Below, piece by piece: positions 22,819 to 35,512 of a stretch of 42,783 bases of DNA. The notes under the pieces were generated by a model. That model saw only the letters and a program-made list of their open reading frames with translations, searched no databases and was not told the origin of the DNA. A program made the position numbers and the translations under genes. Position 1 is the first letter of the stretch; each line of letters starts with the position of its first letter. The stretch comes from a virus (taxonomy: Duplodnaviria > Heunggongvirae > Uroviricota > Caudoviricetes): the IMG/VR virus record IMGVR_UViG_2630968543_000005; one strand, written 5' to 3'.

Positions 22819-22945
22819 GCTCTACCCCTTCATTGAGGGGATTTGCTCTATTTAATTAGGAATAAGGTCGATTACTGATAGAACAAATCCAGGCTACTGT
22901 GTTTAGTAATCAGATTTGTTCGTGACCGATATGCACGGGCAAAAC

Positions 22946-22975
22946 GGCAGGAGGTTGTTAGCGCAACCTCTTGCC
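22946..22975. other. Strong 12-bp stem-loop in the non-coding leader upstream of the lysis genes
   Basis: GGCAGGAGGTTG-TTAGCG-CAACCTCTTGCC. Confidence 0.4.
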
Positions 22976-23224
22976 ACCCGCTTTCACGAAGGTCATGTGT
23001 AGAAGGCCGCAGCGTAACTATCACTGATGAATTCAGGATAGCCAGTGGCTACGGCTCAGTTTGGGTTGTGCTGTTGCTGGGCGGCGATGACGCCTGTACG
23101 CATTTGGTGATCCGGTTCTGCTTCCGGTATTCGCTTAATTCAGCACAACGGAAAGAGCACTGGCTAACCAGGCGCGCCGACTCTTCACGATTATCGACTC
23201 AATGCTCTTACCTGTTGTGCAAAT

Positions 23225-23267
23225 AAAAAAAGCCACCGTTGCAACTTAAGAGTCACTAACGGCAGCT
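23225..23267 (-). terminator. Terminator candidate downstream of HNH-AP2 gene
   Basis: Minus strand GCUGCCGUU...AACGGUGGC stem (two G-U pairs, 17-nt loop) followed by 7 U. Confidence 0.35.
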
Positions 23268-23274
23268 TACATCT

Positions 23275-35450: not shown

Positions 35451-35512
35451 GGAGCAATGTCGCTCGTAACTAAACAGGAGCCGACTTGTTCTGATTATTG
35501 GAAATCTTCTTT

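Follow-up and report, generated by a model that had tools for sequence, protein, structure and literature searches.

What occupies the 456 bp between the HNH-AP2 gene and the holin gene of a lambda-type prophage, and is it more than a spacer? This question is raised by positions 22819-23274 of the window, by which we mean the whole 42,783-nucleotide stretch of IMG/VR virus record IMGVR_UViG_2630968543_000005 (Caudoviricetes). A preliminary description, made from the sequence alone, had singled out a 12-bp stem-loop at 22946-22975 and suggested that the interval may encode a structured RNA or act as a regulatory leader. We propose, with a probability of about 70%, that the late transcript, which carries the lysis and morphogenesis genes, has its untranslated leader in this interval, a mosaic copy of the tR'-to-S leader of phage lambda. 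It is an already known element in a new mosaic, neither cargo nor a new class of RNA, since it is near-identical to a sequence known since the lambda genome and its terminator, LPR2 segment and sdi-type hairpin have already been described.

The similarity with lambda is extensive. In a BLAST search of phage genomes, positions 23231-22823 (sense positions 44-452 of the interval) are 96.6% identical to lambda 44775-45181 over 409 nt, or 90% of the interval, and two alignments support the homology. The matching lambda segment runs from the T-run of tR', the end of the 6S RNA, to 5 nt before the S start codon. The preliminary description did not mention this identity. It had proposed a look at conservation across related prophages, which bears it out: the sequence is kept in many lambdoid and P22-like phages, and 377 phage records contain parts of the interval, as do 1483 of the 5426 complete E. 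coli genomes searched.

The genomic setting is likewise of the lambda type. Q, a pR'-like promoter and a terminator lie upstream, and a holin-endolysin-Rz cassette follows directly downstream on the same strand. The gap of about 455 bp reported earlier is exact. The genes and the gap are as follows.

24500-23982, minus strand: Q-family antiterminator (Pfam PF06530)
23787-23275, minus strand: HNH_3+AP2 protein (Pfam)
23274-22819, minus strand: intergenic gap, 456 bp
22818-22615, minus strand: class II holin of 67 aa, starting M-Y-R-M (PF16080)
22643-22140, minus strand: lysozyme with a hydrophobic N-terminus (Pfam)
22155-21706, minus strand: Rz (Pfam)

As the minus strand carries every gene that flanks the interval, the relevant RNA is the reverse complement of the strand that was first read, a point that the preliminary description missed.

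Within the interval, three modules can be told apart, and their junctions recur in many phages. Module 1 (sense positions 5-55) is an HK75/P22-like terminator. Module 2 (sense 56 to ~215) is a variable middle, present here in its lambda version; elsewhere it holds tRNA-Asn and tRNA-Thr (phages Oslo and SPN9CC, many E. coli prophages) or other inserts (HK75, CUS-3, HK629). Module 3 (sense ~215 to 452) is a conserved block that precedes holins of differing classes and is annotated in CUS-3 as 'bsq3'. CUS-3 bsq3 (L005 1543-1783) aligns with about 23060-22823, and its bsq4 (L005 1188-1251) with 23268-23215. Leaders of the HK97 and P22 types share module 3 only from CUUCGUGA (22990) onward, and this ~170-nt 3' module is common to lambda, HK97, P22, ES18 and epsilon34. 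In the shared part, P22, ES18, epsilon34 and an Enterobacter phage are 74-81% identical, which provides useful divergence.

The lambda late leader and this one share their position, between the Q/pR'/terminator region and the holin gene, and their hairpins, the flagged one among them. The two differ at their edges. The first ~43 nt here are of the HK75/P22 type and not lambda tR', and at the other end the final ~20 nt and the holin correspond to the class II type of Salmonella phage Oslo and ST104-type phages. Here the leader is preceded by the inserted HNH-AP2 gene, in lambda by the 6S RNA, and the lambda orf-64 tail is absent. It had also been said that the Q-to-S interval of relatives carries cargo, and this is correct: in Salmonella phage Oslo and many E. 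coli prophages, tRNA-Asn and tRNA-Thr fill the same slot, replacing ~23219-23070. In the present leader, by contrast, there is no tRNA or other cargo gene except the HNH-AP2 gene upstream.

How, then, would the leader be transcribed? Three control elements precede it or form its first nucleotides.

24004-23975, minus strand: pR'-like promoter, a strong sigma-70 site, TTGACA-18-CATAAT, 11/12 consensus matches, overlapping the end of Q
23934-23914 with a U-run to 23908, minus strand: terminator T1, a hairpin plus U-run found by the terminator scan
23268-23223, minus strand: intrinsic terminator T2, stem 23268-23230 followed by UUUUUAUUU; 17-bp stem, U7AU3, -20.2 kcal/mol

The promoter stands at the same position as the annotated pR' of HK75, and the Q proteins of the prophage and HK75 share 97% identity. 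T2 is the HK75 Tr' sequence (L003 2504-2545) save for one base of the trailing U-run, and lies inside CUS-3 'bsq4'. According to the alignment, T1 and the HNH gene form a ~705-bp insertion (23974-23270) that separates the pR' -10 element from the ancestral tR' of HK75 type, now T2 at the start of the interval. The same insertion occurs in phage HK629 and in the E. coli fox isolate NZ_LR882493. It resembles a moron of the homing-endonuclease type that has been placed within the short pR' transcript.

The pR' promoter is constitutive and its transcripts are terminated in lysogens (PMC7547250). By analogy with lambda, RNA polymerase would start at the constitutive pR'-like promoter just past Q. 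In the lysogen it would halt at T1, with T2 stopping read-through as a back-up, and only polymerase modified by Q would continue past T1, the HNH-AP2 gene and T2, through the leader and on to the holin, lysis and morphogenesis genes. A promoter scan found no promoter-like site inside 22819-23274 on either strand. All transcription of the leader would then have to originate at the pR'-like promoter, and since no promoter is predicted inside it, leader RNA is expected only late in the lytic cycle.

T1 lies ~35 nt downstream of the promoter, and the predicted constitutive RNA of ~60 nt has no Rfam match. The pR'-to-T1 unit (24004-23908) occupies the same neighbourhood as lambda 6S RNA and StxS of Stx phages and is likewise predicted to give a short constitutive RNA; it differs from them in lacking sequence similarity and falls outside 22819-23274. 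In the early transcribed region there is a -10-like TATGCT where HK75 has TAAGCT, possibly the Q-loading pause element.

The leader is not only conserved but strongly folded. The sense RNA of the gap reaches -163 kcal/mol (z = -6.3 against shuffles). Sixteen other 456-nt segments of the window, taken as controls, have a mean z of -0.58 (standard deviation 1.24, minimum -3.3), which makes the leader a clear outlier. In the model, the sense RNA is almost wholly paired in consecutive hairpins: T2, then an LPR2-like stem-loop, a hairpin we call 'mid', P0, the extended stem-loop P1-P2-P3, and P4 with an sdi-like hairpin.

23212-23150, minus strand: LPR2-like stem-loop of 63 nt, -21.3 kcal/mol, counterpart of lambda 44794-44856
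23149-23066, minus strand: 'mid' hairpin closed by GUUGUGCUG/CAGCACAAC, with two small inner hairpins, -25.2 kcal/mol; lambda-type variable module
23055-23006, minus strand: P0 hairpin GAGCCGUAGCC...GCUGCGGC, -27.7 kcal/mol; first hairpin of the conserved 3' block (CUS-3 'bsq3')
22990-22919, minus strand: P1-P2-P3 extended stem-loop, -31.8 kcal/mol (RNAalifold, 15 leaders)
22990-22984 with 22925-22919, minus strand: P1, UUCGUGA/UCACGAA
22981-22976 with 22940-22935, minus strand: P2, GCGGGU/GCCCGU
22975-22946, minus strand: P3, the hairpin flagged earlier, at the tip of P1-P2-P3
22890-22878 and 22851-22839, minus strand: arms of the long-range stem P4, GGAUUUGUUCUAU/AUAGAGCAAAUCC (inverted repeats I1 and I4)
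22921-22913, minus strand: alternative P4 partner GAACAAAUC
22840-22825, minus strand: sdi-like hairpin CCCCU-CAAUGA-AGGGG, whose 3' arm is the holin Shine-Dalgarno sequence

To compare relatives, homologues were drawn from public viral and genome contigs, 15 representative leaders of the lambda and P22 clades were aligned, and an RNAalifold consensus was computed. The consensus fold contains four covarying pairs, and 98.6% of its cells pair, as opposed to 37-47% with slid partners; none of 500 shuffles reaches the observed pairing or covariation score. Structure on the antisense strand was considered as a candidate and found less supported, with z = -3.3 and 595/654 canonical cells, compared with 628/654 for the sense strand. 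G.U pairs number 52 in the sense and 19 in the antisense direction, a difference that favours the sense strand as the structured one.

Individual helices show how the pairing is kept. In P2, a C-G pair becomes U-A in six sequences, with U.G intermediates. The tenth pair of P3 changes from U-A to C-G in seven sequences, and the ninth, A.C in the P22 type, becomes A-U in one Citrobacter prophage. P4 pairs in 100% of cells in both clades, with a U.G to U-A change. P0 is kept in lambda, HK75, CUS-3, Oslo and HK629, and the HK97 and P22 types have a different small hairpin in its place. The covariation-supported P1-P4 architecture, common to the lambda and P22 clades and not specific to this window, may be new.

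These data also bear on the possibility that the interval has no RNA function at all, and that its near-identity is kept as a 'boundary sequence' for module swaps by homologous recombination, the hairpins being incidental. CUS-3 annotates exactly these stretches as bsq4 and bsq3, mosaic junctions fall at module edges (the tR' T-run, the start of P1, inside the sdi loop), and identity is 95-99% among phages that differ in their Q genes, holins and middle modules. Against this stand a fold z that is extreme and specific to the sense strand, and the P22, ES18 and epsilon34 clade, which is only ~75-81% identical yet keeps all helices, with compensatory and G.U changes. In addition, the lambda copy yields a discrete RNA (bioRxiv 10.1101/2024.10.31.621285). 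We regard a pure boundary role as rather unlikely, and note that a boundary role and an RNA function are not exclusive.

Where does this leave the flagged hairpin itself? Its arms are real: the inverted repeat 22946-22957 / 22964-22975 has 12-nt arms that are complementary at 11 of 12 positions around a 6-nt loop, and only 16 of 2000 dinucleotide shuffles of the region contain a hairpin as good. The 'wobble' attributed to it does not survive on the transcribed strand, where the odd pair is an A.C mismatch; it is a G.U pair on the plus strand only. Nor is the hairpin an isolated element, being one of at least seven and capping a longer conserved stem. A search of the available literature library returned no match for the hairpin sequence.

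Could it be a further intrinsic terminator, in a tandem series after tR' that helps to keep the lysis genes off in the lysogen until Q overrides it? Read in the sense direction, the 12-bp stem is followed by GUUUUGCC, and two tandem terminators already lie upstream. Tandem termination sites in the lambda late rightward operon were reportedly described by Luk and Szybalski in 1983, in a paper that our literature search did not find. What was found at the hairpin is not a G+C-rich stem with a conserved U-run, however. The U-tract is short and begins with G, the P22 clade has UGAUCUG or UGAUUUG as its tail, and the bases 3' of the stem pair upstream (P2, P1) with compensatory changes, unlike the anatomy of a terminator. 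The consensus scan made no terminator call there either. With a poor, non-conserved U-tract and paired flanks, a terminator role is quite unlikely.

In our reading, the holin mRNA would have as its structured 5' untranslated region the ~170-nt module formed by P1-P2-P3, P4 and the sdi-like hairpin. The sdi-like hairpin is the best-understood regulatory element of the interval and was not mentioned in the preliminary description. Its stem-loop takes in the Shine-Dalgarno sequence that immediately precedes the holin start. The holin begins M-Y-R-M-D-K, so that two in-frame starts, Met1 (22818-22816) and Met4 (22809-22807), are separated by a basic residue. Across phages with either holin class, the stem occurs in four fully compensated versions, CCCC/GGGG, CCCCU/AGGGG, CCUCACG/CGUGAGG and CCUCC/GGAGG. 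That one and the same 5' arm (CCCC) stands before both a lambda-type and a class II holin speaks for maintenance of the pairing.

In lambda, it is sdi that determines the ratio of the antiholin S107 to the holin S105 (PMC3359269). By analogy with lambda S, the last hairpin of the leader most likely sets the choice of the holin start codon (antiholin versus holin) and with it the timing of lysis. The hairpin shares with lambda a short G-C stem in which the Shine-Dalgarno sequence just before a dual-start holin is paired, and its 5' arm, CCCC, is identical to that of lambda. Its 3' arm and loop, like the holin (67 aa, PF16080, M-Y-R-M), belong to another class, and the stem has 5 bp with a 6-nt loop here, compared with 4-5 bp and a 4-5-nt loop in lambda.

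Together, P4 and the sdi-like hairpin (22890-22825) have a predicted energy of -19.3 kcal/mol. In the lambda clade, the P4 conformer and its alternative are predicted to lie within 1 kcal/mol of each other, whereas in the P22 clade P4 is favoured by ~3-7 kcal/mol. A conserved bistable switch, which we considered, was thus rejected, as the conformers are iso-energetic in the lambda clade only and the P22 clade clearly favours one of them. On these folding models, the P1-P4 module may still be a two-state RNA, in which P1 and P4 compete with an alternative GAACAAAUC/GAUUUGUUC pairing and tune holin start choice and lysis timing. Most likely, the rest of the module beyond sdi is a stabilising or insulating scaffold for the holin ribosome-binding site and the 5' end of the message.

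Further upstream, the leader contains the counterpart of an RNA known from lambda. The LPR2-like segment of 63 nt is 98.4% identical to lambda 44794-44856. We located LPR2 by its probe sequence (bioRxiv 10.1101/2024.10.31.621285): 34 of the 35 bases of northern probe P844 (Silverman et al., Table S5) agree with 23156-23190 on the minus strand. The preprint describes LPR2 from lambda RIL-seq data as an Hfq-bound RNA of ~63 nt, encoded in the late operon next to the 6S RNA, with a northern signal mainly in the lytic cycle and, as chimeric partners in lambda, only the early small RNA (sRNA) PreS and fliC. The length of the predicted hairpin, 63 nt, equals that of the lambda band, given there as about 63 nt.

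The partner is present as well. Both probes for LPR1/PreS, the lambda early sRNA that regulates dnaN, match the window exactly (35452-35512, plus strand). This copy is on the strand opposite to the leader, as expected for the early-left operon, and a duplex scan of PreS against the leader gave its best score on the LPR2-like segment. The likeness to lambda LPR2 thus comprises the probe match, the 63-nt hairpin and the presence of PreS; the single substitution in the probe region (A to C) lies in the hairpin interior. By analogy, the stem-loop is probably excised from the leader as a stable Hfq-binding sRNA.

Lambda LPR2 provides experimental backing, in lambda, for the idea of a structured RNA, at a site ~200 nt upstream of the flagged hairpin. 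The broad guess of a structured RNA or regulatory leader is hence borne out by the fold z, the conservation and lambda LPR2, although the sRNA is not at the hairpin to which attention had been drawn. The Rfam search that had been suggested to check that guess gave no support: no family reached its gathering threshold when 3.5 kb and then the region alone were searched at E up to 10, the best matches scoring 12-20 bits against thresholds of 35-50, with a best E of 3.7 in the region. Matches at chance level, to ctRNA_p42d (in fact the terminator), to a snoRNA and to a CRISPR repeat, were discarded.

Several points weigh against the leader reading as set out so far. Every functional step proposed for this prophage is carried over from lambda by analogy, and even in lambda the sponge role of LPR2 is a suggestion of the authors (bioRxiv 10.1101/2024.10.31.621285). 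Much of the near-identity among phages could stem from recent recombination and not from selection on the RNA. The structure that we tested was derived from the same alignment, and with two clades only there are few independent compensatory events (about four). Opening the ribosome-binding site of holin Met1 costs 9.2 kcal/mol, an ordinary value beside the 3.9-12.8 kcal/mol of other genes in the window, and there is accordingly no evidence for unusually strong occlusion of this site, an idea that we discarded. Finally, within P3 the fifth pair (22971/22950) is Watson-Crick in only 21 of 76 unique lambda-clade sequences, its two sides vary independently (chi-square p = 0.33), and other polymorphisms in the hairpin yield A.C mismatches on the sense strand.

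The same 76 copies show no covariation at the odd pair, which takes the forms A.C (24), G-C (19), G.A (15), A.A (8), U.C (7), U-A (2) and A.G (1). Given that its sides vary independently, the supposed wobble sits at an unconstrained position. Positions 22971 and 22950 are the most variable sites within the conserved module, and nearly all polymorphism of the lambda clade in the 160 nt examined falls in the hairpin. This concentration of polymorphism, which is not specific to the window, may be new.

Does the middle of the leader have another origin? The 65-nt core of the 'mid' hairpin recurs, ~96% identical, after a tRNA-Ser in the tRNA array of a 90-kb E. coli plasmid (NZ_CP122828, L172), where another stem encloses it, with arms similar to those of the LPR2 stem. 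A conserved LPR2-like block of ~80 nt, CACAACAGGTAAGAGC...CTCTTTCCGTTGTGGTGAA, is also found in the non-lambdoid coliphages C1, Bas77 and Lewi and in Klebsiella phages (L173-L177). In three of these five non-lambdoid contexts, Lewi, Klebsiella phi_270 and ST147-VIM1phi7.2, the block is co-oriented with a tRNA gene (tRNA-Met, tRNA-Ser or tRNA-Gly) and ~90-190 nt away from it. This association of the LPR2 module with tRNA genes in unrelated phages is not specific to the window and may be new.

The position of the LPR2 block and the mid core beside tRNAs, together with the tRNA genes in the same slot of relatives such as Oslo and SPN9CC, suggests the origin or behaviour of a tRNA-array cassette. 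The LPR2-like and 'mid' modules could then be a relic or variant of a phage tRNA-array cassette, with RNAs excised by tRNA/rRNA processing enzymes, which would explain a stable 63-nt RNA that has neither its own promoter nor its own terminator. T-arm-like hairpins with covarying stems at the equivalent place in HK75, CUS-3 and HK629 point in the same direction. On the other hand, neither ARAGORN nor the Rfam tRNA model finds a tRNA-like match in the window, and in C1 and Bas77 the LPR2 module lies between structural genes with no tRNA nearby. We therefore treat this origin as possible but doubtful.

The earlier remark that the interval has no tRNA-like T-arm agrees with these searches: ARAGORN found no tRNA or tmRNA gene in the window, and no Rfam tRNA match appeared at E <=10. 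A tRNA-like 'CCA' after the 'mid' stem was rejected, as the register shared with relatives reads N-CCC. The middle modules of HK75 (L003 2640-2760), CUS-3 (L005) and HK629 (L006) end in T-arm-like hairpins followed by CGCCACAA(C/T)CCA, their stems being GCCGG/CCGGC, GUCGG/CCGAC and ACCGG/CCGGU. ARAGORN called no tRNA in these three modules; HK75 gave a weak match to the tmRNA model (E = 0.02, 11 bits).

A last alternative is that the region codes for a small protein, or that the functional hairpin is on the antisense (plus) strand. It had been stated that the interval has no open reading frame (ORF) above ~25 codons, which holds for ATG starts; with GTG and TTG starts, ORFs of 28-52 aa exist.

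22872-23024, minus strand: ORF of 50 aa, GTG start (GTA in lambda)
23068-23226, plus strand: ORF of 52 aa, from the GTG/TTG-start list
minus strand: ORF of 33 aa, from the GTG/TTG-start list
22916-23002, plus strand: ORF of 28 codons, TTG start, antisense to P1-P3, with no Shine-Dalgarno sequence

The 28-codon frame across P1-P3 is open in 14 of 15 leaders, and the hairpin polymorphisms are G.U pairs on the plus strand, as an antisense function would have it. Yet all of the frames lack an ATG start and a Shine-Dalgarno sequence, lambda has no start codon for the 50-aa sense ORF, and the antisense ORF carries a frameshift in HK97 and differs in leader L061. There is no predicted plus-strand promoter, and the overall pairing statistics favour the sense strand. 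No sense ORF of >=25 aa lies wholly inside the lambda leader. We rejected coding potential, as the sense ORFs are not conserved in lambda and the antisense one is broken in HK97, and consider a coding or antisense function highly improbable. The antisense ORF is probably a by-product of the conserved hairpin.

Returning to the untranslated late leader, we can ask what it does beyond its known ends, since roles have so far been assigned there only, to tR' and 6S at one end and sdi at the other. The LPR2 module, which also turns up next to tRNA genes in unrelated coliphages, Klebsiella phages and phage-plasmids, may be excised by tRNA/rRNA processing enzymes to act in trans as an Hfq-bound sponge for PreS. 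If true, this sponge would tie late transcription back to early-gene and replication control. Combined with the two-state P1-P4 module, the leader would be a string of portable RNA cassettes and not a passive spacer, a joint proposal that we offer as speculative, the odds being well against both parts holding together.

For the window, this settles the annotation: a late leader of the lambda type, comprising a terminator, a homologue of LPR2 and, for holin control, an sdi-type hairpin. The leader sequence is among the most widely shared non-coding stretches of lambdoid and P22-like prophages. The covariation of the fold in the lambda and P22 clades and the LPR2 module beside tRNAs bear on how the lysis clock is set and on how phages produce sRNAs; both leads, the P1-P4 fold and the LPR2-tRNA association, are incremental relative to lambda biology.

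When genome contigs were scanned for the conserved core, unrelated taxa (Pseudomonas, Bacillota, Flavobacterium and others) yielded for the most part contaminants and not new diversity. Some of these contigs are ~48.5 kb long, as is the lambda genome, and were taken as lambda DNA. Others are 3.5 kb long and start in the hairpin loop after T runs, a pattern that we take to be that of the Oxford Nanopore lambda control strand.

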